In this document: in pieces, positions 1 through 55,947 of the stretch
How positions within the stretch are numbered: the stretch's first letter is position 1
Layout of the letters: each line of letters begins with the position of its first letter
NCBI GenBank assembly: GCA_964635675.1
Contig: CAZWPT010000043.1
Span: 14,963-78,962 of the forward strand
Source: an uncultured Nitrososphaerota archaeon
GTDB taxonomy: Archaea > Thermoproteota > EX4484-205 > JAAOZP01
Reading direction: 5' to 3'
Length of the DNA: 64,000 nt
Program-made: the position numbers and the translations under genes
Notes under the pieces: model-generated
Databases searched by the model: none
What the model saw: the letters and a program-made list of their open reading frames with translations, nothing else
What the model was told of the DNA's origin: nothing

Positions 1-79
1 AGAAAAATATCCTTATCCTCGTAAAGGGCAATATGTCCACAGCGCGTGCTAATAAAGACCGGGGTTCGAAATCAATTTT

Positions 80-322
80 TCAGTGATATTCCCTTACTGC
101 CTTCCTGAGCTTTCTATAAAATTCTACGACCTCTTTCTGTCCCTTCCCTTTTTTAGGAACCACGTCCATTATGTCGCACCAAGTGTTGCCCGTATCCCAG
201 TAAATGACATTCACCGTTTCCCCTTCAGCAATCCAAGCTCTTTCTCCGTATTCCGGTACATGCTTATGATACCCTTTGCACTTTATGATTTTAGAAATGA
301 CGCCGGATTCTACTTCAGGCAT
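80..322 (-). CDS. hypothetical protein (80 aa), possibly 3'-truncated
   Basis: ORF co-oriented downstream of the EVE-nuclease; no recognisable motif; ends about 30 nt before an AGCGCGTGCT site (41-50). Confidence 0.45.
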   Translation of the reverse strand: MPEVESGVISKIIKCKGYHKHVPEYGERAWIAEGETVNVIYWDTGNTWCDIMDVVPKKGKGQKEVVEFYRKLRKAVREYH

Positions 323-380
323 CTTCCTTCATCCCTAAGGATCCCCTATACGATTGGACGTTTAAAAACGTTTTTAGAAC

Positions 381-1361
381 CTAATAGAGATTCGTCGGTT
401 CCAACCGTAAGGAACCCAATAATTCCTCATAAGCATACTCTTTTTCCTCATCCAAGTTTTTAAAATAGTATTTAACCGGCAGAATCCTCTTGGATTTACA
501 ATCAGCCATTGTCCTCTTAGAAAAGCTTTTCGCTATCAAGACTCCTCCTTTACATTCGCTTCCAAGCTCATTTATGTATGACTCGAGTTGAGCCGCTTCC
601 TGAGGGCGTGCTCCACCTGTTTTAACTTCAATCACAAGGTACAAATTGCCCCCCTCCGGATGCTTCATTTTAATGAAAATGTCTACGAACCCCTCTGGCA
701 ACGCCTTTTCCCCCAGAACCTCGAACTCACCAGGCGGGTGGCTCACTTCAAAGCGTTCCAGAATCATGCTCAGCGCCCCGTCTCTAATCTTCTTTCTAAC
801 CAAGCTCTGTAAAACAAGTTCATGGAAGCGAAACCTCTCTGAATCCTCCTTCCCTTTTCTAAACACGATCTTGGGCTGAAAAACTTCCTTAACTAGATGA
901 AGTGGCTCGTTCTCACCTTCGAAGCGAGAACCCATGTTGGAAACATTATATAGGGTTACTGTATCCGCCTGGAAATGCGTCTTCCTATATCCTCCTCTTA
1001 AAAGCAGGTTTTCAGCAACATATGCGAATTCAGGCCTCACCATAGGCTCGTTTAAAACCCTCTCCTGCTCAAGATGTAGCCTGAAGGGAAAGTAATAGGT
1101 TTTGCCCGACATCTTGAACGTGACAGGAGGCCACGGGGGAAGCCTGTCCGCATTCTTGAAAGCCTCTTTCCTTAAGACCCTGTAAAGATTATACACTCTT
1201 GCGCCATAAAGGAAAGACATGAAATCCCCCTCATCGATGTCTAAGAATGTCCAGAGCCCGTTGATGCTGTTTGTGAAACCGGCTAAAGCATGCTTTTCGC
1301 ACAGTTCAAGGTTTTCGCGAGTGGACACGGAGACTAGAAAATACTCTGGTGTCTTATTCAT
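381..1361 (-). CDS. EVE/PUA-like domain fused to PD-(D/E)XK nuclease (putative modification-dependent endonuclease)
   Basis: N-term '[15 protein letters not shown]...[11 protein letters not shown]' is EVE-like; C-term '[10 protein letters not shown]...LVIEVK...QLESY' matches NucS/Mrr-like PD-(D/E)XK motifs. Confidence 0.65.
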
Positions 1362-1575
1362 CGGTTTGATAGGTTAGTAAAAGTATTCAGTATTCATAAA
1401 CTTATTGGACAGGTTGAAGGTAGCTCCCCCTAGTGCCTTAGCGCGTGCTAAGAGGCTTAAGAACAGCGCGCGATTGTCTTATGTCTCATGGGCGGTGCAT
1501 AACACGCGTATACTTAATTTTCATCGAGAAATCCATATAACTAGCGTACGCGCGCGTCGGGAAGCTTGCGATGCT

Positions 1576-1648
1576 TGATAAAGACTTTCTTTATCACCGA
1601 ACCTAATGACTTGTGTAACAATCAGAAAGATTTTTAAAGGTTGTTACA
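1576..1648 (+). promoter_or_regulatory. inverted repeats upstream of AbiEi-like gene (probable autoregulatory operators)
   Basis: TGATAAAGA-ctt-TCTTTATCA (1576-1596) and TGTAACAA...TTGTTACA (1614-1648) flanking a TTTTAAA TATA-like box. Confidence 0.55.
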
Positions 1649-1660
1649 TGAATAACTATC

Positions 1661-2290: not shown

Positions 2291-2395
2291 GTTTGTTTCA
2301 TTCATCGTTGAAAAATCAGGCTTCATTAAAGAGATTTTGAAGATTTCCTCAAAGTTGTTGGAGAAAAGCTAAGGGAAATAGCAAACAATGTTTGA
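2274..2395 (+). pseudogene. remnant of cognate AbiEii-like toxin (N- and C-termini joined, middle deleted)
   Basis: ATG overlaps the antitoxin end (MPGSSEFVSFIVEKSG); a different frame gives a C-terminus-like 'DFEDFLKVVGEKLREIANNV*'. Confidence 0.45.
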
Positions 2396-2589
2396 AGCAT
2401 GTTTTTCCTGGTTTTGTAGTGAGGATGATCATTCCTAGCAGTATTCTGAATGGCCCTTCAGCCAGCGAGATGCCAAGAACCATTTCTCCGTTATTCTGGG
2501 CTCGTTTCGAATGGCACCAGCCTTATTGCGCACACAAGCTTCTTGAGGCTCAAGCTTTTTATATCTTGGAAGCTAATGGAAATAGGCCT

Positions 2590-3009
2590 ATGAGCGTTTG
2601 GGTTGCAACCGGGTCTTCGCTTAACCTGAAGACTTCTCTCGAGAAAGGGAAGTGGGGTGTTAACAAGAGGCTTAAGAACACTTGGGAAAAGGTTGCTAAC
2701 AGAGACCTGCTTTTCTTCTACGTTACGAGCCCTGTCCGCGGCATTGTCGGTATCGCTAATGTCGAGGGCAAAGCCATAGAGGAGAGTATTCTCTGGCGCG
2801 ACGAGGCTGTTGTCGGCAGAGTCCTCTACCCTTACAGGATATTGTTCAAGCCACTGTTCGTGTTGAGCGAGGATAAGTGGGAGACAGGTAAGATCCCTGT
2901 CAAGGATCTTAACGTGAGCGTTAGAGCAGGCTTGAACAGTCTGAGGAACCAGGATACTGTGGAGAAGCTGCTGAACAGAGTTAGAAACTCGTGGGGCGTT
3001 AAGATTTAA
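2590..3009 (+). CDS. EVE domain-containing protein
   Basis: 'KWGVNKR...DLLFFYVTSPVRGIVGIA.V...LW...YPYRI' is typical EVE/UPF0310; ATG at 2590 follows a TATA-like tttatat. Confidence 0.8.
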   Translation: MSVWVATGSSLNLKTSLEKGKWGVNKRLKNTWEKVANRDLLFFYVTSPVRGIVGIANVEGKAIEESILWRDEAVVGRVLYPYRILFKPLFVLSEDKWETGKIPVKDLNVSVRAGLNSLRNQDTVEKLLNRVRNSWGVKI

Positions 3010-3214
3010 GAGAATATTGCGCTAAACGGCTTAGAACAGTATGCCTGTGTTCAGCGCGCGCTTAAGCTATGAGGCTAAACCATTCCTCAGGCTAGAGGCC
3101 GGTTGGGGTGACTCAGCGTGCGCTTTTCCCAAGGAGGGTTACGCATGAAGAGTTAAACTCATTAGTTGATAAGGCTGCTGCAGACTGCAAGTTCATCCTT
3201 GTCCTGCTCTTCCT

Positions 3215-3460
3215 TAAAAGTCTTGAAATTTTTCTTGAATGGTTATTTTTTGAATTAACCTGCTTAAACCCTGCAAGATTTCATTTGGCTGATGCAGCGC
3301 CCGGATTAAAAAGAGAGTTAGTATGTTCACTAAAAATGCCTCTTCCACCTTTTCTGAACAACGAGAAATCGCTGACATCCTTTCAGCCGTTGATGAAAAG
3401 CTCGAAATTGAAAGAGGTGGAAAAGCAAAATTGGAGAGAATCAAGCATGGCTTAATGGGT
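3215..3460 (+). pseudogene. hsdS: type I RM specificity subunit C-terminal fragment
   Basis: 'LKMPLPP(fs)SEQREIADILSAVDEKLEIERGGKAKLERIKHGLM' is the conserved HsdS helical region; truncated at GCGCGCG 3461-3467. Confidence 0.75.
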
Positions 3461-4792: not shown

Positions 4793-6073
4793 ATGAAAGA
4801 AGCAAGGGTGAGAAGCTACATCGAAGACTGGTACACGAAAAATCTCCCACCCCTAGTGGAAAGAGAGCTCTCCGTAAAGCCGGTAAAAGACAAGGTTATT
4901 TCAATAGCAGGGCCTCGGAGGGCGGGTAAAACCTTCTATTTCTACCAGCTGATGAGGGGGAATAAGGAAAGCTGTCTCTACCTAGATTTTGAAGACTCCG
5001 CTTTGATAGACGTTAAGTTTGATGAGGTGCTGGATGTGATAAACCTCTTCACCGAAACAACTGGCAGGGTTCCAACGGATATCTTTCTAGACGAGGTTCA
5101 AAGGGTAGAGAAATGGGAAACCATAGTAAGAACCCTCTTGAATAGAGGGGGTTATAGAATTTTTGCTACGGGCTCCTCCTCCAAGCTCTTAAGCAGGGAA
5201 GTGGCTACTCAACTGAGGGGGAGGTCTTTAACCTATCTTCTGTTCGGCTTTTCGTTCAGAGAATTTCTAAAAGCCAAAGGAGTTGAGTTGGAGGAAGTCC
5301 TAAGCGGGCTGGAGAAAGCAAAAATAAGGAACTTGTTGAGAGAATTCCTTGAATTCGGCAGCTTTCCGGAAATCGTGTTGAAGGAGGATAAGGAGAAGAT
5401 TTTGAAGGAGTATCAGGACACGATTTTCTTTAAAGACTTTGTGGAAAGACATGAACTTAAAAGCCTTGAAGTGGCAAAGTTCGTTTTTTCTCAAGTACTT
5501 CAAAGTTTCTCGCACGAGTTTAGCGTAAATAGGCTTGTAAACCTGCTTAAGTCGAACAGTATAAGAATGGGGAAAAACACCGTCTACGATTACGTTGAAA
5601 AATTGCAGGATACGCTGGCCGTTTTCTTTGTTAAAAAATACTCGGAAAAAATCTCTCTGAGGGAATCTTGGCCCAAGAAGGTTTACATATGCGATACGGG
5701 GATTTCAAAGGCAGTCCGGTTTTCAGAGGATTTTGGAAGGCTGATGGAGAACATTGTATTTATAGAAGAGATGAGGAAGATAAATGATAATCCTTTGCTT
5801 GAAATCTTTTACTGGAAGGATCGTCAACAAAATGAGGTGGATTTCGTCTTGAAGGAGGGTCAAAAAATTAAACAACTCATCCAGGTTACTTATGCCAATG
5901 GTAGAGATGAAATCGAGAGACGCGAGATAAGGGCGTTGCTTAAGGCCGGTGTAGAACTCAGATGCAAAGATTTACTCGTAGTAACTTGGGGTTATGATGA
6001 TGAATTAGAAATTGAAAATGAAAAAATTAAATTCACTCCACTATGGAAGTGGTTGATTACGCGCAGAGAATAA
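4793..6073 (+). CDS. AAA+ ATPase (COG1373; AAA_14 + DUF4143)
   Basis: Walker A GPRRAGKT, Walker B FLDEVQ, ATGSS, 'PKKVYICDTG', 'EVDFV', C-term 'PLWKWL'. Confidence 0.9.
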   Translation: MKEARVRSYIEDWYTKNLPPLVERELSVKPVKDKVISIAGPRRAGKTFYFYQLMRGNKESCLYLDFEDSALIDVKFDEVLDVINLFTETTGRVPTDIFLDEVQRVEKWETIVRTLLNRGGYRIFATGSSSKLLSREVATQLRGRSLTYLLFGFSFREFLKAKGVELEEVLSGLEKAKIRNLLREFLEFGSFPEIVLKEDKEKILKEYQDTIFFKDFVERHELKSLEVAKFVFSQVLQSFSHEFSVNRLVNLLKSNSIRMGKNTVYDYVEKLQDTLAVFFVKKYSEKISLRESWPKKVYICDTGISKAVRFSEDFGRLMENIVFIEEMRKINDNPLLEIFYWKDRQQNEVDFVLKEGQKIKQLIQVTYANGRDEIERREIRALLKAGVELRCKDLLVVTWGYDDELEIENEKIKFTPLWKWLITRRE

Positions 6074-13627: not shown

Positions 13628-13853
13628 GGAAGGGGTTGATATATTTTTTCCGAATTTCTACAAACTTTAGCGCGCGCTCTAGCTTAAACAGGTTTTTGAG
13701 CCGCCTACTCCTAATAGCAAGCTTTTAGTACCGCTTTATCTATGGCTGGTGGAGCTTGAGCGGTGAGACAGCAGCCTACGGCCTCAGCCGGTGTACTCCG
13801 GCATTGGGGCCTAGGAAGCAGAGCATGGTTGGCATATTCGGGTGGTGTTTCAG

Positions 13854-15748: not shown

Positions 15749-15799
15749 CTCATCCCTGAAGAGAGTGGCACAGCTGACGCTTGCAGCATGTTAGACGTT

Positions 15800-15863
15800 A
15801 AAAAGTACGCTAAGGAATGAGGTGGACTGGCCGGAGGAGATAAGGCGTTTCCTAGAGGAGAAG
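15800..15863 (+). pseudogene. RHH/VapB-type antitoxin fragment
   Basis: 'EVDWPEEIRRFLEEK' resembles archaeal 'VNWSEEIRKFIEEK'; cut at AGCGCGCG. Confidence 0.55.
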
Positions 15864-15871
15864 CGCGCGTT

Positions 15872-20680: not shown

Positions 20681-20765
20681 TCCTGCGAAAAACCCTGTAA
20701 ACCCTTCTTTTAAAGATGGGGGGAGGCAAACGCTTGAGGGAGAGGGTTGAGTGAAAGTGATTAAA

Positions 20766-20951
20766 GCGCGCGCAGAAGATGCTAAAAATTAGAGCAAAAA
20801 TCGTAGTACCTGCTGCAAATCTCGCCTCGAGCCCAAATAACAACACTAGGGCTGGTACTATTATCGTGCCTCCAGCTAACCCCACAATGGACAAGATAGA
20901 AGGCGAAGCTGCAGCGAGCATAGCAAGCAGTATTGCGATGCTGATCTCCAT
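20766..20951 (-). pseudogene. TSUP/TauE-SafE family transporter N-terminal fragment
   Basis: 'SIVGLAGGTIIVPAL..FGL....AAGT'; truncated exactly at GCGCGCGC 20766-20773. Confidence 0.75.
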
Positions 20952-24035: not shown

Positions 24036-24194
24036 GTTAGCGCGCGCTTTGAAGAAATAGAAGTATTTACACCTTAAAACACTAGTAAACTAACTTACGG
24101 GATGGCGATAGCGCGCGCTACGCTAAGGAATACTTTGAGCATTAGATACTTTTCATAGAAAGGTTTAATTATCATCGGTAGCGGCAACATACGC

Positions 24195-25433: not shown

Positions 25434-25672
25434 AATCGTTTGCAATCTTGTAGCGCGCGCTATGATGCTCGAAAAAATAGAATTAAACAAATAACTTAAG
25501 ACTAGGAAGTGTACTTCTCGGGTCGGTTTAGGTAGAGGGGCTGGGTAGAAAGCTATTAGATGAAGCAAGGGTTTTCGCCTCTTTCTTGGAAAAGGAAGAG
25601 CGCGTCCATTGGCTGTATCTCAAGTTGGAGAAAGGTTTAAGTATTCCAACTAAGGTATAACTTTTGGAAACC

Positions 25673-36647: not shown

Positions 36648-36935
36648 GTGGATAAGAATCAAAGGGATTTTCAGGATTTTGAGCCTCCCAGGCTTGTTGA
36701 AAGAGACCTCAGGGTTGAGCCCGTTCTTCCAGTGAGGAGAACCATATCGATAATTGGACCTAGGAGAGCCGGTAAGGCTTTCCTCATGTTTCAAACCATA
36801 AGGGGTCTGCTGGAGGGCAACGTGGGTAAGAGCAGGATGCTTTATGTTAATCTTGAAAGCGATCTTTTAATCGGCGCGCGCTGCGCTGAAACAATCAGGT
36901 TCACACCATTATGGAAATGGTTGCTCGAGCAATAA
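36648..36935 (+). pseudogene. COG1373 AAA ATPase remnant: N-terminus fused to extreme C-terminus
   Basis: GPRRAGK...'LYVNLESDLLIG' | GCGCGCTGCGCTG | 'TIRFTPLWKWL'; about 330 aa missing relative to 4793-6073. Confidence 0.85.
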
Positions 36936-39563: not shown

Positions 39564-39990
39564 TCCTGGAAGCCTTGAGAAACCGGTTAACGGCTGGATT
39601 AATATTTTTTCACACCGGCTTGCAGGCTTACGCTTACCGAGCGAACAGCTCGCGCTAAACGTAGCCGGAGCCGTCTACAAGCATATGTAGCGCGCCGACC
39701 CCCTCTTTAAACCCCTGCATGCCGCGTTACTTTAAAAGCTGGAGAGCACGTTTCAAGAGTGAGCGCCCGGGTTGAAAACTTGCCACTTGATTATTTAAGC
39801 TTTCGCAACTCCTCTCTTAATAGTGCGTCTTCCTAGCCATCCACGCCGTGTTTCGCGAAGCTCTCATCAATCCTCCAAGAATCTCTATTTTTAAAAAAAC
39901 GGTGAAAAAGCTTTAACCACTTGGAGCGTGCGCAAGCATGCGCCTCCTAAGCAGGTAAAAGTTTAAGTTTAGAGTAATGACGCTAGTTCT

Positions 39991-41961: not shown

Positions 41962-42285
41962 GATCTGTTTCCCGAGCCGCCCACCTGTACATATTTTCTC
42001 AGCAGCCTCCGCCTTTTTTCTAAACAAGAGTGGGAACCCGGCTAGGATTCTTTTGAGGATGCGGCTGCATGGTTGCTTGCTTCCCTGCTTATTTTCACAC
42101 CCGCAGCTTTAGCACGCGCGCTAGCATGCTGCAACTAAACATTTAAAAATTCGCAACGTTCGTGGAGAGCGCGGGAGAGGGGCGGGTCTCAAGCGTGCAT
42201 TCTGCACGCTGAAACAGGGCTGTCGGAGGAAGGAGTAACCCGATGAGGATGGCCCTAGCTCTGCCATCATAGCGCGCTGTCCTCA

Positions 42286-42349
42286 TCACGTTTTTAAGTA
42301 TGCTTTGCCCTCTTCAATAACAACCTCGTATTTCTTCAAGGGCTTTACT
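42286..42349 (-). pseudogene. C-terminal fragment resembling a Rieske-type ferredoxin
   Basis: 'VKPLKKYEVVIEEGKAYLKT*' starting at AGCGCGCGCT 42350. Confidence 0.45.
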
Positions 42350-42368
42350 AGCGCGCGCTCAGAAAAAA

Positions 42369-42396
42369 CTTATAAGCTATAGCTTATAAGCTATAG
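42369..42396. promoter_or_regulatory. TATA/operator palindrome of VapBC
   Basis: perfect 22-bp palindrome CTTATAAGCTATAGCTTATAAG, also a 14-bp tandem repeat. Confidence 0.65.
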
Positions 42397-42400
42397 CGAT

Positions 42401-42601
42401 ATGACGAGCACCATACAGGTGAAACGCCGCAACCTAAGATTGTTAGAAGCGTTAAAGAAACGCATGGGTTTGAAAAGCTACGACGAGGTTATTGAAAGGC
42501 TTCTCGAAGAGAAAGCCGGCATACCGGCCGACATGTTTGGAGTAGACAAGGGGAGGGTTTCAAGGTTTACTGAGAAGGATAGGATGGAGGACAGGGATTG
42601 A
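42401..42601 (+). CDS. vapB: VapB-type antitoxin
   Basis: 'TIQV...L..LKK..G.KSYDEVIERL'; overlaps the PIN gene. Confidence 0.85.
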   Translation: MTSTIQVKRRNLRLLEALKKRMGLKSYDEVIERLLEEKAGIPADMFGVDKGRVSRFTEKDRMEDRD

Positions 42602-42999
42602 TCGTCGCAGACAGTTACGCGTGGATCGAGTACTTTCTGGGCAGTGACTCCGGAAAGATCCTGAAGGACCATATGGATTCGGAGGAGCTGGTTACTCCAT
42701 CAATCGTGCTGGCTGAGGTTGCGAGAAAATACCTGCGTGAAGGCATTGGGGAAGAAGATGTTGTTAAAAGGCTCAGCTTTATCGTGGCAAGCAGCACCGT
42801 GAAGGAGATCGATCCTGAGCTGAGTATGGCGGCGGCGAAGGCTTATCTGGAGCTTTCTGAAAAAGCGAAAGCGAAGGGGCTTAGAAAACCCAGTCTGACA
42901 GATGGAATCGTGTTGGCTTCAGGAAGAACTCTTAAAGCCAAAATAGTCACTGGAGACGAACATTTCAAAGGATTAGATGAAGTAGTATACATAGGTTGA
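42598..42999 (+). CDS. vapC: VapC PIN toxin
   Basis: 'DSYAWIEY', 'SLTDGI', 'VTGDEHF'. Confidence 0.92.
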   Translation: MIVADSYAWIEYFLGSDSGKILKDHMDSEELVTPSIVLAEVARKYLREGIGEEDVVKRLSFIVASSTVKEIDPELSMAAAKAYLELSEKAKAKGLRKPSLTDGIVLASGRTLKAKIVTGDEHFKGLDEVVYIG

Positions 43000-43176
43000 C
43001 AGTGCAGCGCACAAAGCCATCCGTCACGTTGCTTTGGCTTCCACATAAGATAAAGCCGCCTGATGCTTAAGCACAAGGTTTTAATAAAGCCGGCTTATTA
43101 ACCGTGCCTGAAGGTTGCACGAGGAGAATCTGACTAACGGGAAACGGTTTTCAAGCGCGCCACTAAAAACCAGGGG

Positions 43177-43998
43177 GTGTTAGTCTTTTCAGACAAGTTC
43201 ATCGTTTATTATTTCAGTCTGGTTCTGTTAATCGACGGTCTAGCATACGCTCCGTGGGTTTTGGCTTCATACGGCATGTTTCCGTCTGATCTGATTTCTG
43301 TTTCCGTGATCCTTGGCGGCGTCTCTCCAACTATTGCCGCACTCGTAGCAGCCAGACTTGAATTTGGGAGAGGCGGAGCGGAATATTTATTCAGCCAGTT
43401 CGCCCGCAAGGGTTTTTCAAAACTGTGGTTTTTGATGCCTGTCCTCCTCCCCTTGGTTCTTGCGGTCTGTTCGGTCTTGCTGTGGACTATAGCTGGGGGA
43501 AAATATACTCTGGACTTGACGAAGCTGCACGAGTTTCCGCCGATCCTGATTACGAGTTTCTTAATGAACATGTGGGAGGAAATAGGGTGGAGAGGCTACT
43601 CTTTACCCGCGCTGCAAAAGAAATACAGTGCGCTTGCTTCGAGCCTAATTGTCGGAGTGTTTTGGGCATTGTGGCACTGGCCACATTTTGCAGTCAAAGA
43701 CAGCATTATGGCAGTCAATTACCATAATTTTCTCTGGTTTGCCATTTTCACACTCTTCTACTCCGTCTCTTATACGTGGCTCTACAACTCCACTAAAGGA
43801 AGCTTATTCATAGTGTCGCTGTACCATGCATCCACAAACGCAGCAAACACCATACTATTTGTTGAAGCCAGTATCGCCAGTTCCATCTTCCCATTCTATT
43901 TTCTGACAGTTATCATTCTCGTCCTCGTCCTAGTTTTTGTATTCAAGCCAAATTCTTTATACAGTAAAAAGGAGAAGATCCGACGTGCGCGCGGTTAG
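43177..43998 (+). CDS. CPBP/Abi (CAAX) intramembrane metalloprotease
   Basis: 'EEIGWRG', 'WALWH', 'H...N'. Confidence 0.9.
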   Translation: MLVFSDKFIVYYFSLVLLIDGLAYAPWVLASYGMFPSDLISVSVILGGVSPTIAALVAARLEFGRGGAEYLFSQFARKGFSKLWFLMPVLLPLVLAVCSVLLWTIAGGKYTLDLTKLHEFPPILITSFLMNMWEEIGWRGYSLPALQKKYSALASSLIVGVFWALWHWPHFAVKDSIMAVNYHNFLWFAIFTLFYSVSYTWLYNSTKGSLFIVSLYHASTNAANTILFVEASIASSIFPFYFLTVIILVLVLVFVFKPNSLYSKKEKIRRARG

Positions 43999-44387
43999 CA
44001 GACAACTTATTAATTATCTTAAAGACCCCATTTTTTAACGAATAGCGCGCGCTAAAACAGCGTTACTCAAGTGCAAGCAGTATCTCTTTCTACGTCAGCC
44101 AGGCGGCGTAAAGCAAGGCAGCCTAAATATCCTCCGAGGAAAGGCTCAGCATTCTTCAACCGAATCCTTAGCGCGCGCTCCATAGATGTTTAAATACTAT
44201 TTTCATAATATACTGACTATTAGGAATTGACTGCCCTGATTAAAGAACTTGTCTACGATTATCTTCTGCTGGTTAACATCGCGCGCTATCGCTGACTTTA
44301 TGGCTTCTATGCTTACCATATTTATCAACGCAAACTTTCTCTTAGGGGCTTTTTCATTCAAGAAGAACGGTCTTTCGACTAAATTAA

Positions 44388-44540
44388 CTAGTCAAGAAAC
44401 GTTTTTGGACGATTAGCAAGCAGCCTAACCGCATCGTAAACCATCTTCTCGTTAACAGCACCAGTGCAAACAAGTTTCCCAGAAGCAAATAATAATATAA
44501 CTACATCAGGATCATGCATACGATATATTAAGACTATCTT
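44388..44540 (-). pseudogene. tbp: TATA-binding protein C-terminal fragment
   Basis: 'LIYRMHDPDVVILLFASGKLVCTGA' is the TBP signature; starts at AGCGCT 44543-44548. Confidence 0.85.
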
Positions 44541-44546
44541 TAAGCG

Positions 44547-44774
44547 CTATTGGAGAAGTTTGGCAAATTCTTCTACTGTTAAGCCGGCTTGACGGATTAT
44601 TGCTCTTAATGTTCCTTTAGCGATCTCTCTGTGGAGTGGTACGGTTATCCTTCTATACGGGTATTCTTTATGTCTGAGTATGATGTGGCCACCAGTCTGA
44701 TGATCCACCTCATAGCCGATCTTAGACAAGGCCTTTACAACTTCTAGGCCAGAAACAACGGGAAGCTTAGACAT
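44547..44774 (-). CDS. hicA: HicA toxin
   Basis: 'G.H.IL', 'TVPLH.EI.KGTLR.I'. Confidence 0.92.
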   Translation of the reverse strand: MSKLPVVSGLEVVKALSKIGYEVDHQTGGHIILRHKEYPYRRITVPLHREIAKGTLRAIIRQAGLTVEEFAKLLQ

Positions 44775-44979
44775 GAATCTCTACAAGCTCTTCCTCTATT
44801 GATGGAGGTATAGGCTCACCGTGTTTCTTCAGGCTTTCCAAGTAGCCTCGAATAGCATCCTTTATGTTTTCAATGGCTTCTTCCCTAGTCTTCCCCTGAG
44901 AAATACAGCCAGGCAACACGGGAACCTTAGCCACGTAGAAACCATCTTCATCTCGCTCCAGCAGTACTCTAAACTTCAT
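44767..44979 (-). CDS. hicB: HicB antitoxin
   Basis: 'VP.LPGC.SQG.T.EEA..N..DAI'. Confidence 0.92.
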   Translation of the reverse strand: MKFRVLLERDEDGFYVAKVPVLPGCISQGKTREEAIENIKDAIRGYLESLKKHGEPIPPSIEEELVEIHV

Positions 44980-45260
44980 GAAATAGGGTCTAGGGAACAA
45001 AATATTTAAGCATTACCAAAGGCTCCGGTAGAAAGGCTTCTAAGAGTGCAAGTAGTATCTATTTCTCCGTCAGCCTAAGTGCGTAGAGAATAGTGGTCTT
45101 ACGCGCGCTAAGCAGTAGCACTCTGGGTTTTGTCATTATAAGGCAGGGTAGCTGACTTTCTTCTTAGTTTCCCAATCCTCTCAGCCATTTAGAATGGTTC
45201 TGAAGATTTTTTTAACCATCAGCAAGGCTTAAAAGAATCAGATGTTGATTTTGTTAAGGC

Positions 45261-45455
45261 ATGGGCGAGCGTTACATCGTTGATGAAAAAGGAGAGAAGA
45301 AAGAGGTAGTTATTCCTATTGAAGAATACGAGGAGCTTCTTGAAGACCTGCACGACCTTGCCGTAATAGCTGAGCGCAGGGATGAGCCGACGGTCCCCCT
45401 AGAGGAAATAATAGAGAAATTGAAGAAGAATGGTATACTACCGTGTTCTACTTAA
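45261..45455 (+). CDS. RelB-like antitoxin
   Basis: 'VVIPIEEYEELLEDL.D'; overlaps relE. Confidence 0.8.
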   Translation: MGERYIVDEKGEKKEVVIPIEEYEELLEDLHDLAVIAERRDEPTVPLEEIIEKLKKNGILPCST

Positions 45456-45696
45456 GAAGCCTGTCGATAAAGATCTGAGAAGAATAAACCCAACTCAGGT
45501 TCTAAGAATAATCGAGGCCATAAGGGAACTGGCTGTAAACCCATTTCCAGCGAGCTCACGGAAACTCAGGGGCTCGGAGAATCTTTACAGAGTGAGGATA
45601 GGAGACTATAGGATAGTTTATCAAGTAAATGATAAAAGTAAGACTGTTACCGTACACTATGTAAGGCACAGAAGAACTGCTTACAAGCCTCTCTAA
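45430..45696 (+). CDS. relE: RelE/ParE family toxin
   Basis: 'KLRG...YRVRIGDYRIVY', 'VRHR'. Confidence 0.92.
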   Translation: MVYYRVLLKKPVDKDLRRINPTQVLRIIEAIRELAVNPFPASSRKLRGSENLYRVRIGDYRIVYQVNDKSKTVTVHYVRHRRTAYKPL

Positions 45697-45763
45697 CTTA
45701 AATTTAGGGAGGCGGGTGGTCTAGTTGAGCGGTTCAACCGCCGGTGGGCAAATCCTTACGGCC

Positions 45764-45998
45764 ATGGTTGAGAGGGGTCATAGGCCGGAGTATAGGCAGC
45801 TCTACTTCAAGGCGAGCGAGATAAGGAGCATACTGGGGGATGGAGAGTGTTTCTTCGAAGTCATGGTTAGGGGTAAAGCCGTCGTGAAGAAGTAGAATCC
45901 TGAGCGTCAACGCCACCAGTACATGGTTTCAAGCTGGGTCGGGGAGCCGGGGATGGAGGTGGAGGTAGAGTTGAAGAGGCTCAGCGATAAGGAGGTTA
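45764..45998 (+). pseudogene. unidentified gene fragment with internal stop, truncated at the palindrome
   Basis: coding-like frame 'MVERGHRPEYRQLYF...VVKK*NP...ELKRLSDKEV' running into AGCGCGCGCT. Confidence 0.4.
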
Positions 45999-46019
45999 GC
46001 GCGCGCTAACCTCCTTATC
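45986..46019. repeat. perfect 34-bp palindrome centred on AGCGCGCGCT
   Basis: GATAAGGAGGTTAGCGC|GCGCTAACCTCCTTATC. Confidence 0.95.
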
Positions 46020-46101
46020 CGTATTTAATGCAGCATGCTATTCGAACTCAGTATGAGCAACTTATTTCATGTCCCCATCATGGTAAAAATATTTATTTAA
46101 A

Positions 46102-49512: not shown

Positions 49513-49702
49513 TTTCCACTACCCTTCGTAAACGGTGTTCACCCTTTTCTCCCTTAAAAAAGTATTCTCCCCGAGTAAGGGTCGTGGCGCCAAGCCTTGG
49601 GAAACATTGTTTTCCCCACCCGTTGAAACTGTCTAAACGCCGCCGGGCGGTGGCTGTGAACACCCCGCGGATGCCTCTATGAGGGCGCTGCCCTAAGGGA
49701 TT

Positions 49703-50490: not shown

Positions 50491-50558
50491 CGTTTGCCTG
50501 TGCCCCCGCCCCCTAATGCTGAGGGTATGTTATATTTCTTTCGCCGCTTCCCAAGCCT

Positions 50559-51254
50559 TTACACTGCCCTGGGTACGCTTGGAGACTGGACGAATGCTTC
50601 CGCGTAAGGCCTGTCTATAAGGTAGCCTCGAACCTGGGCTAGTGCCCTAAGGTATTTCAGAATATTCGGGAAGACTCTTATCTGCGACCGATAGAGGCTC
50701 ATGGCTTTAATCTTCATGTTGAACGTCGGCGTTACGTCGACTATCATGCTCGGATTAGGAAAGAGGTCGAAGACCTCGAAAAAGTAGACGGTTCCCACTC
50801 TCCAGGGCTCGCCCAGGTCCCCGTATGCCCTCGTCATCGAGCGCCAGCAGGCCTCTGTCGAGCACTCTGAAACAGCCCGGTGTAGATGATGCTTGTCGTT
50901 CGGCGAATGGGTGAAAACCATGTCAGGCTTAAAGTCCCTTACCTCCGCCACAAGCCTTCTCACGACGCTTCTCCGGTCTATGACTTCAGGGATTTCAAGA
51001 ATCCTGTGTTCAACCCCGAGGTATGCCGCCACCTTCTCAGCCTCGCGGGTCCGAACCTCTTCAATCATGTTTTCCTCATACTGGGCTCTTCCACTGGCCG
51101 CAAGCCCTCCTCCCCCTCTTGAGAAAAGCACGACTCTGACTGCACAGTCCTCCCTGTGCAGCCTGCATATCGTGCCTCCTGCCCCTATCAGCTCGTCATC
51201 CGGGTGCGCTGCGAACACTAATACTCTTTCAGGAGTCTTAAACAAGCCAGCCAT
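50559..51254 (-). CDS. PIG-L/LmbE family deacetylase
   Basis: 'AAHPDDE..GAGG', 'FTH...D.H..H', 'SQ', 'AEAF'. Confidence 0.9.
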   Translation of the reverse strand: MAGLFKTPERVLVFAAHPDDELIGAGGTICRLHREDCAVRVVLFSRGGGGLAASGRAQYEENMIEEVRTREAEKVAAYLGVEHRILEIPEVIDRRSVVRRLVAEVRDFKPDMVFTHSPNDKHHLHRAVSECSTEACWRSMTRAYGDLGEPWRVGTVYFFEVFDLFPNPSMIVDVTPTFNMKIKAMSLYRSQIRVFPNILKYLRALAQVRGYLIDRPYAEAFVQSPSVPRAV

Positions 51255-51671
51255 CTTCAAACATGCGTGCGACGGCTTAACATAAATCTTTGCCACGTGC
51301 TTGTTAAGCACGGTTTCAGCAGCCTTTTTCACGCTGCTGGAGAACGTTTAACCCGTGAGCATCCGGTGCTGAACACGGTGGAGCCTGGTCAGTCGAGGGG
51401 TGGTTGTCAAACCTGCGGGAAGACCCCCTGTTTCAAGCCGTTTAAGCCTGCTTAAACTGGGTTTTTAAAAACGGGAAGATTTTGAGCCTCGTGAAGCCTC
51501 CTAACCGAATGTTTTACGCTTTGAAAAATCGTCTAAACCATTTAAAACCCAATTTACAAACGTGATATTATCTGATTTCAAGACTTTAGCGATTTTAGTC
51601 AAAATTTTCCACCCTTTCCATGCGAAAAGACTTATTAATGCGTCCGTTTAACCCAAAGAAGGGTAAAATAA

Positions 51672-51902
51672 ATGTCGGAGGAACTGTCGTTAGCGGCTAT
51701 GTACAGGATTCTCCGGAAGTCCGGAGGAGAAAGAGTGAGCGAGGAGGCTGCGGAGGAACTGTCAAGAATACTGGAGGACATAGGTGTGAGGATCGCCAGG
51801 GATGCTGCACAGCTAGCGGTATTCGCAAGGAGGAAGACGATTCGCGCAGAGGACGTTAGGATGGCTGCTAAACGCTACATGTCCCAGATCCCGGGTGCTT
51901 GA
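51672..51902 (+). CDS. archaeal histone (HMf family variant)
   Basis: 'RILRKSGGERVS', 'RKTIRAEDV'. Confidence 0.93.
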   Translation: MSEELSLAAMYRILRKSGGERVSEEAAEELSRILEDIGVRIARDAAQLAVFARRKTIRAEDVRMAAKRYMSQIPGA

Positions 51903-52074
51903 GCCGAGCAGATTCAGCAGACGCGTGAATCCGCATAGATGAGGACTCAGTGAGAATCATGTGTTTTCAAGAGGTGGACACAGTACTAGGATAATTGTCT
52001 ACACACATGATTATCACCGGCTAGAATTGTACCTGGTAAAAAGGGTTCCTGCTATGCTTTAGCGCGTGCTCAAG

Positions 52075-52512
52075 CTATATGTCTAAAAGAACCTTAATCC
52101 TCGCTTTTCCAGGATACTCTTCTATCTCCATGTCGTGGAGGGTTACCGCCTTCACTTGCGTCCCACTGGTGTGCCATCCGGGCTTGAACTTTTCACCCCT
52201 CATCACGGCTTTGAGAACATACTTGCAGCTCTCCCCCTCTATCTTCACGTTGAAGACTGAGAAAACCATTTGCTCAGCGTCAAGCCTGACAAGTATTGCT
52301 TCCAGCCACTTGTAGAGGAGCATCTGGAGATCCTCGGCTTCAACGGTTTCCTCAACAGTCTGCTCAGGCCTTATTCTGGAAACGTCTGTTACGACTCCCG
52401 TTAATCCTAGGGCAGCGTTCTCGAAAGCCTCCTCCAGGCTTCTCCCGTATGCTTGAACATACACGTCGGAAGTGTGCTCAGGATAGTCATACTTCCCGGG
52501 GCAGGGCTTCAC
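52075..52512 (-). CDS. archease (SHS2 domain)
   Basis: 'EHTSDV...AYG.SLEEAFENAA', 'VKAVT.H', 'LLDI*'. Confidence 0.92.
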   Translation of the reverse strand: MKPCPGKYDYPEHTSDVYVQAYGRSLEEAFENAALGLTGVVTDVSRIRPEQTVEETVEAEDLQMLLYKWLEAILVRLDAEQMVFSVFNVKIEGESCKYVLKAVMRGEKFKPGWHTSGTQVKAVTLHDMEIEEYPGKARIKVLLDI

Positions 52513-52604
52513 GCTTAAGAAGCAGGCGGGGGAGGGGATAAATATTTTCCCCTCCGCGTAGCTAGGAGAATGCGCGACAAGCCCTCCTGCTCCATGCTTT
52601 CCTC

Positions 52605-54548
52605 CTACCTTAATCCTGCGAGCATCAGTATTCTCAGGGCGAGCCCGCCTAGGACGAGGGCGAGGAAAACCTCTGAAACAGTTATGACTAGGGCTTTCCT
52701 CCAGCCGAACTCCATCACCAGGGTTGCGATCGTCGCCACGCAGGGAATGTAGAACATGCTGACGATCGTGAAAACCGTCATTTGAACCTGTGTCAATGCT
52801 TGAGACAGGTCGGCGGTGCCAAGCAGGGTGGTGAGCATTATGAGCGCAAGCTCTTTTCTCAAAACCCCGAACAAGAGTGTTACGCCTGTTTCCACGGGTA
52901 GGCCGAGCCAATCCACTGTGACGGGGGCCAGCAGGCTTGTGAAAACGCTCAGCACGCCAAGCACCTCTAGAAGCTTAACTGTGAGTGTTGACGCGATTAT
53001 CAGCGGGAAGGCTATTTTAAGGAATTCGAGAAGCCTGAACCACGTCTGGCTTAGAACAGTCCTGGGGTGTGGCAGCCTGTAGTCAGGCATCTCCATTATA
53101 AGCCCCGTTGGCTCGCCAGGCAGTATTTTGAAGGCGAGCCTCCCGAGGAGGAAGACTACCAGCAGGTTGAGCGCGTAGAGCACCAGGGCCCACTGTATTC
53201 CTATGAATCTCCCAACTAGGCCGAGTATTATGACTGTTCTGGCGGCGCAGGGCACCAGGGTTGTGACGAACGCTGCGATAAGCCTCTCCCTCTGGGTCTC
53301 CATTATTCTGCACCCTAGGCATGCTGGAACGTTGCAGCCGTATCCCAGTAGCAGGGGTATGAAGGCTTTCCCGTGAAGCCCCATCTTGTGCATTACGCTG
53401 TCCATGAGGAATGCTATCCGGCTCAGGTAGCCGGAGTCCTCCAGGAAGTACAGGGCCAGGTAGAACGGGATTACGTAGGGCAGCGCTATCGTTGCCCCAG
53501 CTATCAGTCCTTCGACAACGCCTCCCCAGAGGAGCCGCCCGATAAACCCTGTTCCGAAAAACCCTTCGAAAAACGGTTTAAAACCGTAGAGAAGGCTGCT
53601 TAAAAGCTCTGAGAAAAAGTTTCCCACGGTGAAGACGAAGAGGAACATTGAGAGCAGTGTCGCAGCCATTACAAGGTATCCGGCGACCCTGTGCGTGGTT
53701 ACGCTGTGAAGCCTCTCGCCCAGGGTTGGTTTCAACGGTGGGACGAGCCTCTGCACTTCTCTAGCTATGTTGTTAGCAGCCTGGTAGCGTTCAGAAGTTA
53801 TCAGGGTCGGGCAGGAGTGGCCGTGGAGCCTTTCAAGCTCCTCGCCGAGGCTTCTCGCAAGAGCCGCCGCCTGAGGCTTCGTTTTTTCAACCTCCTCCCG
53901 AATCTCCCTGTCGCCCTCAAGGAGTTTTATCGCTACGTATCTCGCCGGGTACGGGAGGCCGCTGTCTCTAACTGCTTCAGCAAGCCTCTCTATTCTCTGC
54001 TCAACCTCCTCCCCGTATTTAACCGGCTTCGGCTTTGCTCTAAGCCTTCCCTCGAATATTTCAACAGCCTTCTCCAAGAGTTTGAATATTCCTACTCCCT
54101 TAACCGCGATCGTCGGGACAACCGGCACGTCCAGAATCTCCTCAAGCTTCTCAACATCTATCCGGATGCCTTTCCTGCCCGCAACATCCACCTGGTTTAG
54201 GGCGATGACCATCGGCGTCTCCAGCTCCATGAGCTGCAGGGTGAAGAACAGGTTTCTTTCAAGAACAGAGGCGTCGACAACGTTCACCACCACGTCAGGC
54301 TTATCGACGGCGATGAACCTTCTCGAGATAGACTCCTCTATGGAGTATGTGGAGAGCGAGTATATGCCGGGGAGGTCGACAACGTCAACCGTGTACCCTT
54401 TAAAGTGGAGCGTTCCCTCGGCTTTCTCAACAGTCTTCCCCGGCCAGTTGCCGATATGCTGGTGCAGCCTGGTTAAGTGGTTGAATATTACTGATTTGCC
54501 GACGTTCGCGTTTCCCGCGAGGGCTATAACCAGCTTCCTCCCGCTCAA
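52605..54548 (-). CDS. feoB: ferrous iron transport protein B
   Basis: GNANVGKS, GNWPGKTVE, DLPGIYSL, 'GYGCNVPA'. Confidence 0.96.
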   Translation of the reverse strand: MSGRKLVIALAGNANVGKSVIFNHLTRLHQHIGNWPGKTVEKAEGTLHFKGYTVDVVDLPGIYSLSTYSIEESISRRFIAVDKPDVVVNVVDASVLERNLFFTLQLMELETPMVIALNQVDVAGRKGIRIDVEKLEEILDVPVVPTIAVKGVGIFKLLEKAVEIFEGRLRAKPKPVKYGEEVEQRIERLAEAVRDSGLPYPARYVAIKLLEGDREIREEVEKTKPQAAALARSLGEELERLHGHSCPTLITSERYQAANNIAREVQRLVPPLKPTLGERLHSVTTHRVAGYLVMAATLLSMFLFVFTVGNFFSELLSSLLYGFKPFFEGFFGTGFIGRLLWGGVVEGLIAGATIALPYVIPFYLALYFLEDSGYLSRIAFLMDSVMHKMGLHGKAFIPLLLGYGCNVPACLGCRIMETQRERLIAAFVTTLVPCAARTVIILGLVGRFIGIQWALVLYALNLLVVFLLGRLAFKILPGEPTGLIMEMPDYRLPHPRTVLSQTWFRLLEFLKIAFPLIIASTLTVKLLEVLGVLSVFTSLLAPVTVDWLGLPVETGVTLLFGVLRKELALIMLTTLLGTADLSQALTQVQMTVFTIVSMFYIPCVATIATLVMEFGWRKALVITVSEVFLALVLGGLALRILMLAGLR

Positions 54549-54562
54549 CCCTGTTTCCCCAG

Positions 54563-54859
54563 CTAAGTCTCGCTGCAGCCGGCCTGCGTCTCCTCCACTC
54601 TCACGAAGACTCTTTCAGCCATCCCCCTGCCTATGGCGAGCCTGTACCCCCTTACGAGGATCTCCATCGGCCCGTGGAACGGGGCTGACTTGACAACCGT
54701 GATCCTTGTTCCCGGCGTAATGCCCATGTCCATAAGCCTCTTCTTAAGCCCCCAAGCCCTCCCGTATCCTGACTTCACTGAGACGACAATCCCCGTCTCC
54801 CCGTCTCTCAGCGTCGCCAAGGGTACTTCGCGTCCCCCAGTGTCGGCGGCGGTGCTCAT
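54563..54859 (-). CDS. feoA: ferrous iron transport protein A
   Basis: 'RLMDMGITPG...APFHGP...VRG'. Confidence 0.93.
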   Translation of the reverse strand: MSTAADTGGREVPLATLRDGETGIVVSVKSGYGRAWGLKKRLMDMGITPGTRITVVKSAPFHGPMEILVRGYRLAIGRGMAERVFVRVEETQAGCSET

Positions 54860-55539
54860 TGCCCAACCCCTTTCACGCGTATCAGTGAGGCTAGGCTGAG
54901 GCTCAGCACCCTCTTCTCCCCGTCTACCTCAACCCCGACCTGCTTGTCCGACGCCGGCTTCTCAACAATCCTAACCACGGCTCCCGGAACCATTCTAAGC
55001 CTCTTCAGGTGGAGAAGGAGCTCAGGCTTCTCCTCAACAACTTTAACGATCACCCCCTGCTCGCCCTCAGTGAGCTCCGACAATGGCTGTGTTTCCTCCT
55101 CGGAAAACTTTCCCTGCTCGTTTGGAATAGGGTTTCCATGCGGGCATGTCCTCGGGTAGTTCAGCGCCTTCTCCAAGTGTTTAACCACTTCCTCGGTTAG
55201 GCTGTGCTCCAGCCTGCACGCCGTCTCGTGAACAATGTCCCAGTCCATTTTCAGAAGATCCACTAGAAGCCTCTCCGACAGCCTGTGTCTCCTGACCACT
55301 TGAAGAGCTATTCTGCGGCCCTTCTCAGTTAGCCTAACGCCCCTGTAGGAGGAGTGTTTCACGAAGCCTTCTTCCTCAAGCCGCTCCACCGTGTTCGTAA
55401 CCGTGCCGGGGGCTACTCGCAGGGTTTTGACAATGCTGCTGGTTCTGGCTACTCCCTCCTTCTCCTGAAGCCTGTATATGCATTCCAAGTATTCTTCGAC
55501 GGCCGGGGTTACTTCTTGGCTTACTGTTCTGTCGGGCAA
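54856..55539 (-). CDS. DtxR/MntR family metal-dependent regulator with FeoA-like C-domain
   Basis: 'EEYLE.IY', 'RRHRLSE', 'LEH', 'CPHGNPIP'. Confidence 0.93.
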   Translation of the reverse strand: MPDRTVSQEVTPAVEEYLECIYRLQEKEGVARTSSIVKTLRVAPGTVTNTVERLEEEGFVKHSSYRGVRLTEKGRRIALQVVRRHRLSERLLVDLLKMDWDIVHETACRLEHSLTEEVVKHLEKALNYPRTCPHGNPIPNEQGKFSEEETQPLSELTEGEQGVIVKVVEEKPELLLHLKRLRMVPGAVVRIVEKPASDKQVGVEVDGEKRVLSLSLASLIRVKGVGQ

Positions 55540-55549
55540 CTCTTTTCCG

Positions 55550-55571
55550 AAAGTACGACTTCTCGTACTTT
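55550..55571. promoter_or_regulatory. probable DtxR operator
   Basis: AAAGTACGA-cttc-TCGTACTTT between the TATA box and the dtxR start. Confidence 0.65.
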
Positions 55572-55947
55572 TTAAACCTTTTTCCCTCCCCGAATACTTC
55601 CTCCTTTAAAAATAGTTTTAAACAGGTTTAAAGCCGGGTTGCGCGACGTGGCGCGCGATGCTTAGCCGAATCCTTGCCGGCGATTTTGAGGCCCGTCGGC
55701 GTGATGGCTCAACGTTTAACGCGGCTGGTTCTCTCCGCGTCGGGGAGGATGCTGCAGCCTAAGGAGACGCATAACTCCAAATCGGGACCCGGCTAGACTA
55801 TGCTCCATAAAGCCTGTTGAATTGAAACAAACCATGGTAGCGCGCGCTACAGTATGTTGCACACGGTTGCCGGCGTGACTTCAACTCGCGGCAAAGCTTT
55901 ATATAGGTATTACTGAAACAGGGAAAAGTAATACCGGGTGATTCGGG

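Follow-up and report, generated by a model that had tools for sequence, protein, structure and literature searches.

A constant GC palindrome at deletion and gene-truncation junctions in Candidatus Brockarchaeota: a possible filler of rejoined DNA ends

Why should one ten-base palindrome, AGCGCGCGCT, recur between the genes of a hot-spring archaeon, and why do deletions, truncated genes and captured segments begin or end at it? The question is raised by a stretch of 64,000 nucleotides, here called the window, which covers C43:14963-78962 of genome G000 (2.16 Mb, 65 contigs, 49% G+C); C with a number denotes a G000 contig and L with a number a compared locus. G000 is a Candidatus Brockarchaeota metagenome-assembled genome (MAG), and the loci matched by the IleRS of the window are titled as Brockarchaeota or Thermoproteota hot-spring MAGs. 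The initial annotation of the window proposed that the palindrome marks junctions at which DNA has been rearranged or rejoined, and the comparisons bear this out down to the single base. At the junctions of deletions, replacements, insertions and gene truncations the motif is additional sequence, at sites that carried no similar sequence before. Our tentative reading, held with less than even confidence, is that A(GC)nT, with AGCGCGCGCT as its usual form and n=3 or n=5 as rarer ones, acts as a constant, self-complementary filler that is added de novo when breaks are rejoined.

The exact 10-mer occurs ten times in the window, at 3053, 13669, 24039, 24110, 25452, 42350, 44044, 44170, 45998 and 55839, and all ten had been annotated correctly. 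The mean expected from 100 dinucleotide shuffles is 0.08; the maximum in any shuffle was one and none reached ten. The four annotated copies of AGCGCGCT (4327, 14686, 37050 and 42271) were also recovered, a count that is not significant alone (1.12 expected; 2 of 100 shuffles as high). Most of the annotated near copies exist as well. Those at 41, 1440, 3115, 6076, 35751, 52061, 15862, 20765 and 36873 differ from the motif by one mismatch, others were found at 4445, 4634 and 44278, and those at 42111 (AGCACGCGCGCT), 21043 and 45102 were read directly, with offsets of at most 1-2 bases; the one reported at 12708 could not be found with up to one mismatch. Genome-wide, G000 has 70 copies of AGCGCGCGCT, 26 of TAGCGCGCGCTA, 63 of AGCGCGCT and 9 of AGCGCGCGCGCT. 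Judged by mononucleotide expectation, AGCGCGCGCT is the most enriched 10-mer of the genome and its 12-nt extension the most enriched 12-mer. The 6-mer AGCGCT is not enriched, with 400 copies against about 527 expected by an arithmetic estimate. The 70 copies of the 10-mer are spread across 31 contigs and their flanks are mutually unrelated. Other enriched words of G000 are unrelated to the motif, among them AGCCTCCTCC and GAGGAGG-type words, which likely reflect coding bias; AGGCTGTTGAAA and GCTGTTGAAAAC are likewise enriched, with 31 and 19 copies.

The gene calls used here are crude, being the longest open reading frames (ORFs), and cover 89% of G000. All ten exact window copies fall outside them, as do 58 of the 70 copies in the genome in their entirety (binomial P ~8e-45). 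The annotation had described the exact copies as intergenic and the motif as avoiding genes, unlike the cyanobacterial palindrome HIP1 (highly iterated palindrome 1), and both descriptions are borne out by this placement; a k-mer count split by coding and intergenic DNA, proposed together with them, found the enrichment and found it to be intergenic. Of the eleven copies that lie entirely within ORFs, six are close to an ORF end (outer 8%), and the ORFs that contain the other five are 75-132 aa long. The motif is almost confined to harmless places: it lies between genes, in pseudogene fragments or at the edges of accessory genes, toxin-antitoxin pairs among them. Intergenic copies are distributed over divergent (15), tandem (15 and 15) and convergent (9) spacers in proportion to spacer length, the nearest gene end is 0 to more than 1000 nt away, and the neighbouring genes have every orientation. 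No fixed distance or orientation to gene starts or ends was found for the intergenic G000 copies. The lack of a preferred spacer type or distance argues against a promoter, operator or terminator, and a promoter, terminator or regulator site was rejected on this lack of positional bias.

The strongest evidence on what the motif marks comes from related genomes, each species being represented by a single genome and the genomes being mutually non-independent. For G016, the closest species, 743 kb was compared (35% of the genome), and for G010 1.66 Mb (83%), with palindrome and k-mer counts made on 399 kb. An alignment to relatives had been suggested with the annotation; in it the motif stands at insertion-deletion (indel) and rearrangement breakpoints and is absent from the uninterrupted alleles. 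When window 12500-27500 was searched against the genus with blastn, the homology blocks broke at motifs. In G007 the homolog of 13682-15823 is followed by one exact motif, joined directly to the homolog of 21119-21832, and then by an MFS-transporter segment from 24107; in G016 the MFS segment (to 25419) is joined almost directly to 26404 onward.

Thirty-four G016 motif sites were compared with G000 using 300-nt flanks. Ten had no homolog, 11 were homologous on one flank, 5 were non-collinear and 8 collinear. The motif place was conserved in none of the 34, compared with 98 of 300 random intergenic places (Fisher P 4.6e-6), and homology ended within 2 nt of the motif for 18 of 37 homologous flanks, compared with 50 of 240 in a random intergenic control (P 7e-4). 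A comparison of 100 G000 and G016 sites with G010 gave 39 without a homolog, 37 with one homologous flank, 9 non-collinear and 15 collinear; none of the 15 collinear sites has the motif in G010. The G000 motif places are conserved there in 0 of 66 cases and random intergenic places in 52 of 400 (P 4e-4). Motif places turn over fast between species. The junctions at which the exchanged sequence can be read are the following.

L049:11517, a clean insertion of 10 bp, with no duplication.
L078:5220, 12 nt in place of 6 bp.
L043:13563, 11 nt in place of 19 bp.
C7:6932, exactly the 10-mer in place of 182 bp.
L066:9687 (G016), 284 bp of coding sequence exchanged for precisely the 10-mer.
L079:4898 (G016), the 10-mer in place of about 690 bp that hold a VapC-like gene.
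C38:2723, 15 nt in place of 772 bp.
L054:4623, a 4.8-kb two-gene block replaced by 76 nt, the motif, 63 nt and a (GC)5 motif that abuts the truncated second gene.

An outgroup gives the polarity of one junction only, L066:9687, where the segment is kept in both G000 and G010 and the G016 state is therefore derived; for truncated genes, polarity is inferred from the intact coding sequence.

Several genes of G000 are cut off precisely at the motif. Truncated genes end on the base before it at C43:60960 (window 45998), C39:1648 and C5:14746, they start just past it at C42:8948 and C44:1910, and a further one adjoins it at C52:24017. Between the motifs C44:1910 and C44:2046 sits a 126-nt piece of the gene for a 141-aa protein. 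The fragment left of 45998 corresponds to residues 4-89 of a 213-aa paralog, contains an internal stop and ends one base before the motif. At the truncation points the intact paralogs have unrelated sequence with nothing GC-rich, and a tblastn search of G000 with six intact paralogs found none of the missing halves. Two further window fragments lie at one-mismatch variants: the AAA_14 fragment at 36648-36935, which matches positions 2-43 of the 129 in the profile, stops at 36873, and the TauE/TSUP fragment 20658-20951 (positions 3-63 of 237) is found at 20765. The annotation had placed the motif at the cut ends of gene fragments, and in the window this was seen for these two and for the decayed paralog fragment at 45998. 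Its suggestion that the motif arises by cutting and filling of AGCGCT or GCGC sites is refuted, as the intact paralogs, orthologs and reference alleles have no AGCGCT or other GCGC-like sequence at the examined breakpoints and AGCGCT is not enriched. Because the intact reference lacks any such sequence, the whole 10-mer is extra.

How do the window copies themselves sit among the genes, and do they vary between strains? The relevant features are given below in order of position.

3053..3062, exact AGCGCGCGCT between short ORFs at 2392-3009 (weak EVE match) and 3108-3455.
12848-13627, minus strand, gene for a heliorhodopsin (Pfam E 1.7e-53), immediately to the left of the 13669 motif.
13669..13678, exact motif; homology to G007 starts 3 nt past it (13682).
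15862..15871, one-mismatch copy AGCGCGCGTT, 39 nt beyond 15823.
20765..20774, one-mismatch copy AGCGCGCGCA inside the TauE/TSUP fragment, which spans 63 of the 237 positions of the profile.
24039..24048, exact motif, 3 nt downstream of the stop codon of a PIN (VapC-like) gene; it and the next copy enclose 61 nt.
24110..24119, exact motif bordering the MFS-transporter segment on its left, with homology from 24107 (G007) and 24137 (G016).
25452..25461, exact motif that flanks a MazE/PIN toxin-antitoxin segment (~25461-26400) on its left.
36873..36882, one-mismatch copy GGCGCGCGCT where the AAA_14 ATPase fragment loses its family match.
39647..39656, degenerate copy AGCTCGCGCT at the left border of a 2466-bp segment with a DUF4838 gene (39991-41961).
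42111..42122, degenerate 12-nt copy AGCACGCGCGCT at the right border of the same 2466-bp segment.
42346..46101, strain-variable stretch of 3.76 kb, from the motif at 42350 to the 3' end of a tRNA gene.
42350..42359, exact motif marking the left boundary of this stretch.
44044..44053, exact motif 45 nt past a CAAX-protease-like gene, the first of a pair 126 nt apart.
44170..44179, exact motif, the second of that pair.
45102..45109, half-decayed copy CGCGCGCT adjoining an 11-bp indel (45091-45101) between the window and the X4 and X6 contigs.
45986..46019, perfect palindrome of 34 bp, centred on the exact motif 45998-46007, which has arms of 12 nt to its left and right.
46102-46195, minus strand, tRNA gene (Rfam 54 bits, full model, 94 nt) missed by ARAGORN; its length suggests that it is probably intron-bearing.
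55839..55848, exact motif within a 380-bp stretch (55515-55893) that is skipped or replaced in the X6 and X2 contigs.

Several of these places differ in the relatives. Left of the motif at 13669, G007 has other DNA, homologous to window 33031-33859, in place of the heliorhodopsin gene, and at its equivalent of 15823 stands the exact motif described above. At the place of the 24110 motif G007 has a decayed copy, GCGCGCT. The MazE/PIN segment is missing here in G016 and is found at two other places in G007, one beside an exact motif and the other beside an 8-mer copy.

Strain variation was followed on window 36500-56400 by aligning contigs, not raw reads, from four other hot-spring runs. In the X6 contig 39648 is joined to 42115 and the joint reads GCGAAC AGCGCGCGCT AGCATG, that is, one perfect motif with the 2466-bp segment gone. 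The X2, X4 and X6 contigs stop matching at 42345/42346, at the motif 42350; X2 and X4 match to 42345, five bases short of that motif, and resume at 46102, with less than about 450 nt in place of the 3.76 kb between. That stretch contains genes of the PIN, CAAX-protease-like, HicA/HicB and ParE types, together with one pseudogene fragment and four exact copies of the motif. An X2 contig matches to 44708 inside hicA, which is intact in the window, and continues with T, AGCGCGCGCT and other DNA; the DNA beyond has no counterpart in G000 or in the compared loci. In X2, too, 47 nt at 39704-39752 give way to 1516 different letters; this replacement lies some 50 nt to the right of the degenerate copy at 39647 and adjoins a partial motif copy, TAGCGCGCC, at ~39688. 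Toxin-antitoxin genes are dense at 23354-26355 and 42598-45696 (MazE/PIN_3, MazE/PIN, a lone PIN, HicA/HicB and ParE), and most of those in the window adjoin motif copies. The ATPases of the AAA_14/DUF4143 (and ATPase_2/DUF234) type are represented by two full genes (4793-6073 and 7560-8873) and by the N-terminal fragment 36648-36935, and the AAA_14-type family appears to be a frequent passenger of variable DNA.

The motif is short and stands alone. Only the adjacent base is biased (T before, A after; 85 of 140 half-sites) and there is no conservation farther out; a longer conserved element was therefore rejected in favour of the 10-mer plus one flanking base, and the palindromic GCT..AGC filler flanks of the annotation proved not to be general. 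At several junctions the T before or the A after is native sequence, at others it is extra or absent. Among 128 sites there is no target-site duplication, direct repeats being at the level of a control with re-paired flanks, and the clean insertion L049:11517 has none either; a general inverted duplication around the motif was likewise not above the re-paired control. An inverted copy of the flank is present at three sites, the clearest being the 34-bp palindrome at 45986-46019; its left arm is formed by the final 12 nt of the truncated, decayed gene fragment and its right arm by the reverse complement of these. The number of GC units varies: 743 kb of G016 contain 37 copies with n=4, 19 with n=3 and 13 with n=5. 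Motif copies decay mainly by transitions. The commonest one-mismatch variants of G000 are internal transitions (14, 16 and 18 copies), internal transversions have 1-8 copies except for G>T at position 2 with 13, and the variants are mostly intergenic. Exact copies therefore arise first and decay later. The annotation had argued from decayed copies for age in vivo and against an artefact, and this is supported by independent assemblies, by the decay and by the intergenic restriction.

Which organisms carry the motif? Among 41 genomes searched it is enriched in G016 (118 copies), G007 (88), G000 (70), G008 (33), G006 (32), G005 (18) and G009 (16), and is at or near control level in G012 (6), G010 (3) and G013 (3). 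Seven further members of the genus, three of them 91-93% complete, have none, and the other 24 genomes of the same order or phylum show no enrichment (absent or control level). The motif-bearing genomes have an IleRS at least 87% identical to that of the window, and those at 76-81% have no copies. G010 is an exception within the clade, with an IleRS 89% identical, 92% completeness and three copies only. In its 399 kb GCGCGCGC is at background, and no substitute intergenic palindrome was found there. The palindrome AAGCATGCTT was tried as an alternative filler in G010 and set aside as enriched yet coding-biased. It is about 24-fold enriched in those 399 kb and has 32 copies in G000, of which 5 are intergenic; as it lies mostly within ORFs, it is probably a coding effect.

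How could a constant palindrome come to replace deleted DNA? In the mechanism that we tentatively prefer, both ends of a break, or of a captured fragment, would gain the same GC-rich palindromic 3' tail, either by in-trans copying of an existing motif copy or through a dedicated tailing or adaptor activity. The two tails would pair, ten G+C-rich base pairs being expected to be stable at hot-spring temperature, and the joint would be filled and sealed to leave a single palindrome. Pairing in a shifted register would give n=3 or n=5, and a tail that folded back and primed synthesis could give the 34-bp palindrome at 45986-46019. Existing copies may be preferred sites of new breaks, with segments gained or lost beside them, which would make the motif look like a cassette border. 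If ends are filled in this way, one palindrome should take the place of deleted DNA whatever its length, pieces of DNA should be caught between pairs of palindromes, n should vary from 3 to 5, duplications should be missing and fold-back synthesis should happen now and then. The annealing of self-complementary GC tails had already been suggested in the annotation; of the mechanisms offered there it would fit the largest number of observations, and it is the one that we tentatively adopt. The bolder form of the proposal, that the Brockarchaeota subclade has a dedicated activity which fits any two ends with the fixed GC adaptor AGCGCGCGCT and then seals them, is in our view somewhat unlikely.

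A number of observations weigh against rejoining by a filler. No enzyme for it was found among the 13 protein families searched, in a small panel of five genomes (G000, G016, G007, G010 and G002) or a large panel of 17 genus genomes. None of the families tracks the distribution of the motif, so that the correlation with gene presence which the annotation had hoped for did not emerge. Ku (PF02735) and reverse transcriptase (RVT_1) have no match in the five genomes, and in the 17 genomes the PolX palm has no match above the cut-off, Prim-Pol is matched only in G000 and fails to track the motif, and protein-primed PolB yields no candidate that tracks it. A general repair route does not explain why the close relative G010 has three copies. 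Absent or one-sided homology in G010 is only modestly enriched at the motif (48 of 66 sites against 224 of 400 random intergenic places, P 0.011). Fold-back signatures are rare, at 1-3 of 128 sites, with no excess over the re-paired control. The native T before the motif at some junctions might hint at an enzyme that cuts or joins at a specific sequence, and the single-motif empty site of X6 together with the bordered 2.47-kb segment reads more simply as a site-specific insertion. Finally, known end-joining fillers vary, and to our knowledge a constant 10-mer has no precedent. In a wider contrast, 102 crude G000 proteins have no match in the compared part of G010 and a match in the compared part of G016; ten of these were inspected by eye and look metabolic or membrane-bound, giving no enzyme lead.

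The nearest described process is alternative end joining, for which templated and snap-back insertions are established in other organisms (PMC2943611, PMC5728401, PMC4912351). With repair of this kind, for example of the Pol theta type, the Brockarchaeota junctions share inserts where DNA has been deleted, the lack of target duplication, an occasional snap-back inverted copy of the flank and the capture of short fragments. The fillers of alternative end joining, however, vary from junction to junction and are copied from nearby, whereas in Brockarchaeota the filler is the same A(GC)nT at about 70-118 copies per genome. As far as the analogy goes, the two are alike in outcome only. We know of no described end-joining route that uses a fixed adaptor.

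Could the 10-mer instead be a mobile unit in its own right? On this explanation it would be a minimal non-autonomous element of two 5-bp inverted ends, cut at its outer edges and inserted with no target duplication; two copies could mobilise the DNA between them, as in a composite transposon, and intramolecular events would leave a motif beside deletions. The clean 10-bp insertion and the full motifs beside arbitrary breakpoints would follow from this, as would a gene segment bordered by motif copies on both sides, the same toxin-antitoxin segment beside motifs in three contexts (G000 and G007), and a lineage-restricted, uneven copy number of 3-118. We nevertheless consider it unlikely. An exact replacement of 182-772 bp would need deletion and insertion in one step. 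No tested transposase family tracks the motif, and tyrosine recombinase is likewise no guide, with no match in the motif-richest genome, G016. Y1_Tnp (PF01797) has no match in the 17 genomes, its profile having matched 6 of 14 known control genomes; in the small panel DDE_3 is not matched at all, the TnpB-type domain is absent from G000 and has six matches in the motif-poor G010, and DDE_Tnp_1 occurs in G016 and G010 only and is absent from G000 and G007. The genus genomes are nearly free of recognisable transposases. A self-comparison of G000 by megablast (38 rows, mostly contig-end pairs) found no multi-copy element or insertion sequence (IS)-like family, in an assembly type that can lose repeats. 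We also know of no transposase end nearly as short as 10-12 bp. Repetitive extragenic palindromic (REP) sequences and bacterial interspersed mosaic elements (BIMEs) are likewise intergenic, palindromic and lineage-restricted. REPs, however, have greater length and imperfect symmetry and require a RAYT gene; the Brockarchaeota unit is 10-12 bp and stands at deletion junctions, Y1_Tnp is missing, and there is no REP-type imperfect palindrome of 20-40 nt or flanking tetranucleotide.

A quite unlikely explanation is that the motif is the core of a site-specific recombination site, similar to attC or Xer sites, at which segments are inserted, excised or exchanged. It was the recombinase core of the annotation, and it accounts well for the cassette-like loci: in X6 one perfect motif occupies the place of the 2466-bp segment that the window carries between two copies, motifs frequently flank accessory genes and toxin-antitoxin pairs, and homology blocks in G007 and G016 are reshuffled at them. 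It does not account for the truncated genes. A conservative exchange between a motif and a non-motif sequence would give half-sites, whereas full motifs are seen at arbitrary points within genes, and internal gene deletions carry one motif although the ancestor had nothing of the kind there. Conservation beside the motif extends to a single position. A palindromic site should invert as often as it deletes, yet all four same-contig non-collinear G016/G000 sites keep their strand, in what is a small sample. The counts of tyrosine recombinase (Phage_integrase, PF00589) in the 17 genomes are not tied to the motif, with no match in G016 (118 motifs, 94% complete) and five in G010 (three motifs), and there is no intact serine recombinase, the only Resolvase match in the five genomes being a broken copy in G016. 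Integron attC sites are structured, about 60-140 bp long and served by an adjacent IntI, and pdif sites have 28 bp. The Brockarchaeota loci resemble them in that accessory genes, often toxin-antitoxin genes, are bounded by palindromes and that one empty site with a single copy exists; they differ in that the motif has only 10-12 bp, is scattered with no array in one orientation, lies at random breakpoints within genes and does not co-occur with tyrosine recombinases. One may also compare the mobile promoter/stem-loop (PeSL) cassettes of T4-type phages, with short repeated motifs bordering shuffled ORFs of hypervariable regions, and the small mobile GC-rich non-coding palindromes known as yeast mitochondrial GC clusters. 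Both are longer, are regulatory or duplicate their target, and belong to a phage or an organelle, and neither is a 10-mer that replaces deleted DNA. If the motif were nevertheless a mobile element or the site of a recombinase, its 10-12 bp would make it the shortest such unit or site known to us.

It is improbable that the palindrome is the excision footprint of an unassembled element, virus or plasmid with AGCGC...GCGCT termini, whose imprecise insertion and excision produced the deletions. Inverted termini joined head to head would give such a palindrome, copy numbers are lineage-restricted and uneven, Tc1/mariner-type footprints are palindromic, and multi-copy elements are often lost from metagenome bins. 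No element-filled allele was seen, however, in 23 collinear comparisons (8 of G016 with G000 and 15 with G010) or in the strain contigs, G000 contains no repeated element or half-motif with shared sequence beside it, there is no target-site duplication, and the repeat number ranges from n=3 to n=5. A viral or plasmid source was sought in two scans that gave 57 IMG/VR loci, mostly high-GC contigs, none of which aligns to G000. Footprints of the Tc1/mariner/IS630 type also leave a small palindrome, and TAGCGCGCGCTA can be parsed as TA+GCGC and GCGC+TA, but the reference alleles have no TA at the examined insertion points, DDE_3 is absent and no element is seen. A Prim-Pol match at C63:3908-4321 (966-aa open frame), the sole one in the genus, lies about 4 kb from a tyrosine recombinase at C63:8115-8582, and this region may be an integrated plasmid or virus.

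Very improbable is a palindrome of the HIP1 kind, kept by a methyltransferase and biased repair, or a binding site for a regulator, terminator or chromosome-organising protein. HIP1 (GCGATCGC) of cyanobacteria reportedly can exceed one copy per gene and is tied to orphan methyltransferases (PMC4390886, PMC5861425), and it is termed evolutionarily conserved in another report (PMC13756078). Like HIP1, the Brockarchaeota motif is a short, perfect, G+C-rich palindrome that is hyper-abundant in one lineage, and its excess of C>T-type variants could reflect cytosine methylation. It differs in being nearly absent from genes, in standing at indel breakpoints and in being unconserved in place (0 of 34 and 0 of 66 sites). 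Among the 17 genomes the C5 DNA methylase family (PF00145) was found only in two, the motif-free G001 and G003. The motif shows no preferred spacer type or distance, and its one-mismatch neighbours are enriched rather than depleted. A constant palindrome that joins unrelated DNA does resemble a ligated linker, but an artefact of library or assembly, such as linker or chimeric joins, is to all intents ruled out by assemblies of different species, projects and regions that carry it, by independently assembled contigs of other runs with new junctions of their own, by the 24 further genomes searched from the same order and phylum, in which it is absent or no commoner than in the control, and by the decay and intergenic restriction that imply a history in vivo.

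A fixed 10-bp junction palindrome with no target duplication fits no family tested. In searchable literature the string AGCGCGCGCT appears in primers and constructs only, among the matches listed, and a search for archaeal palindromic filler at deletion junctions gave CRISPR papers only, among the matches listed. Titles and abstract openings on Brockarchaeota and palindromes contain nothing on the motif. We know of no described repair or mobile-DNA system that rejoins ends through a fixed adaptor.

If rejoining through a constant filler is true, the motif would be a tag, visible in the sequence, of illegitimate DNA joining in an uncultured archaeal phylum. Each copy would represent one break-and-rejoin event, so that genomes could show directly how often deletion, gene capture and gene loss occur and what they affect. 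It would also be a simple answer to the question of how hyperthermophilic archaea that have no Ku rejoin their ends, with the paired GC tails offsetting the instability of short microhomologies at heat. The adaptor-adding or adaptor-ligating enzyme would be of practical interest. For these archaea the process would amount to a natural linker ligation that heals breaks in the heat, deletes genes such as toxins and stitches captured or foreign DNA into the chromosome.

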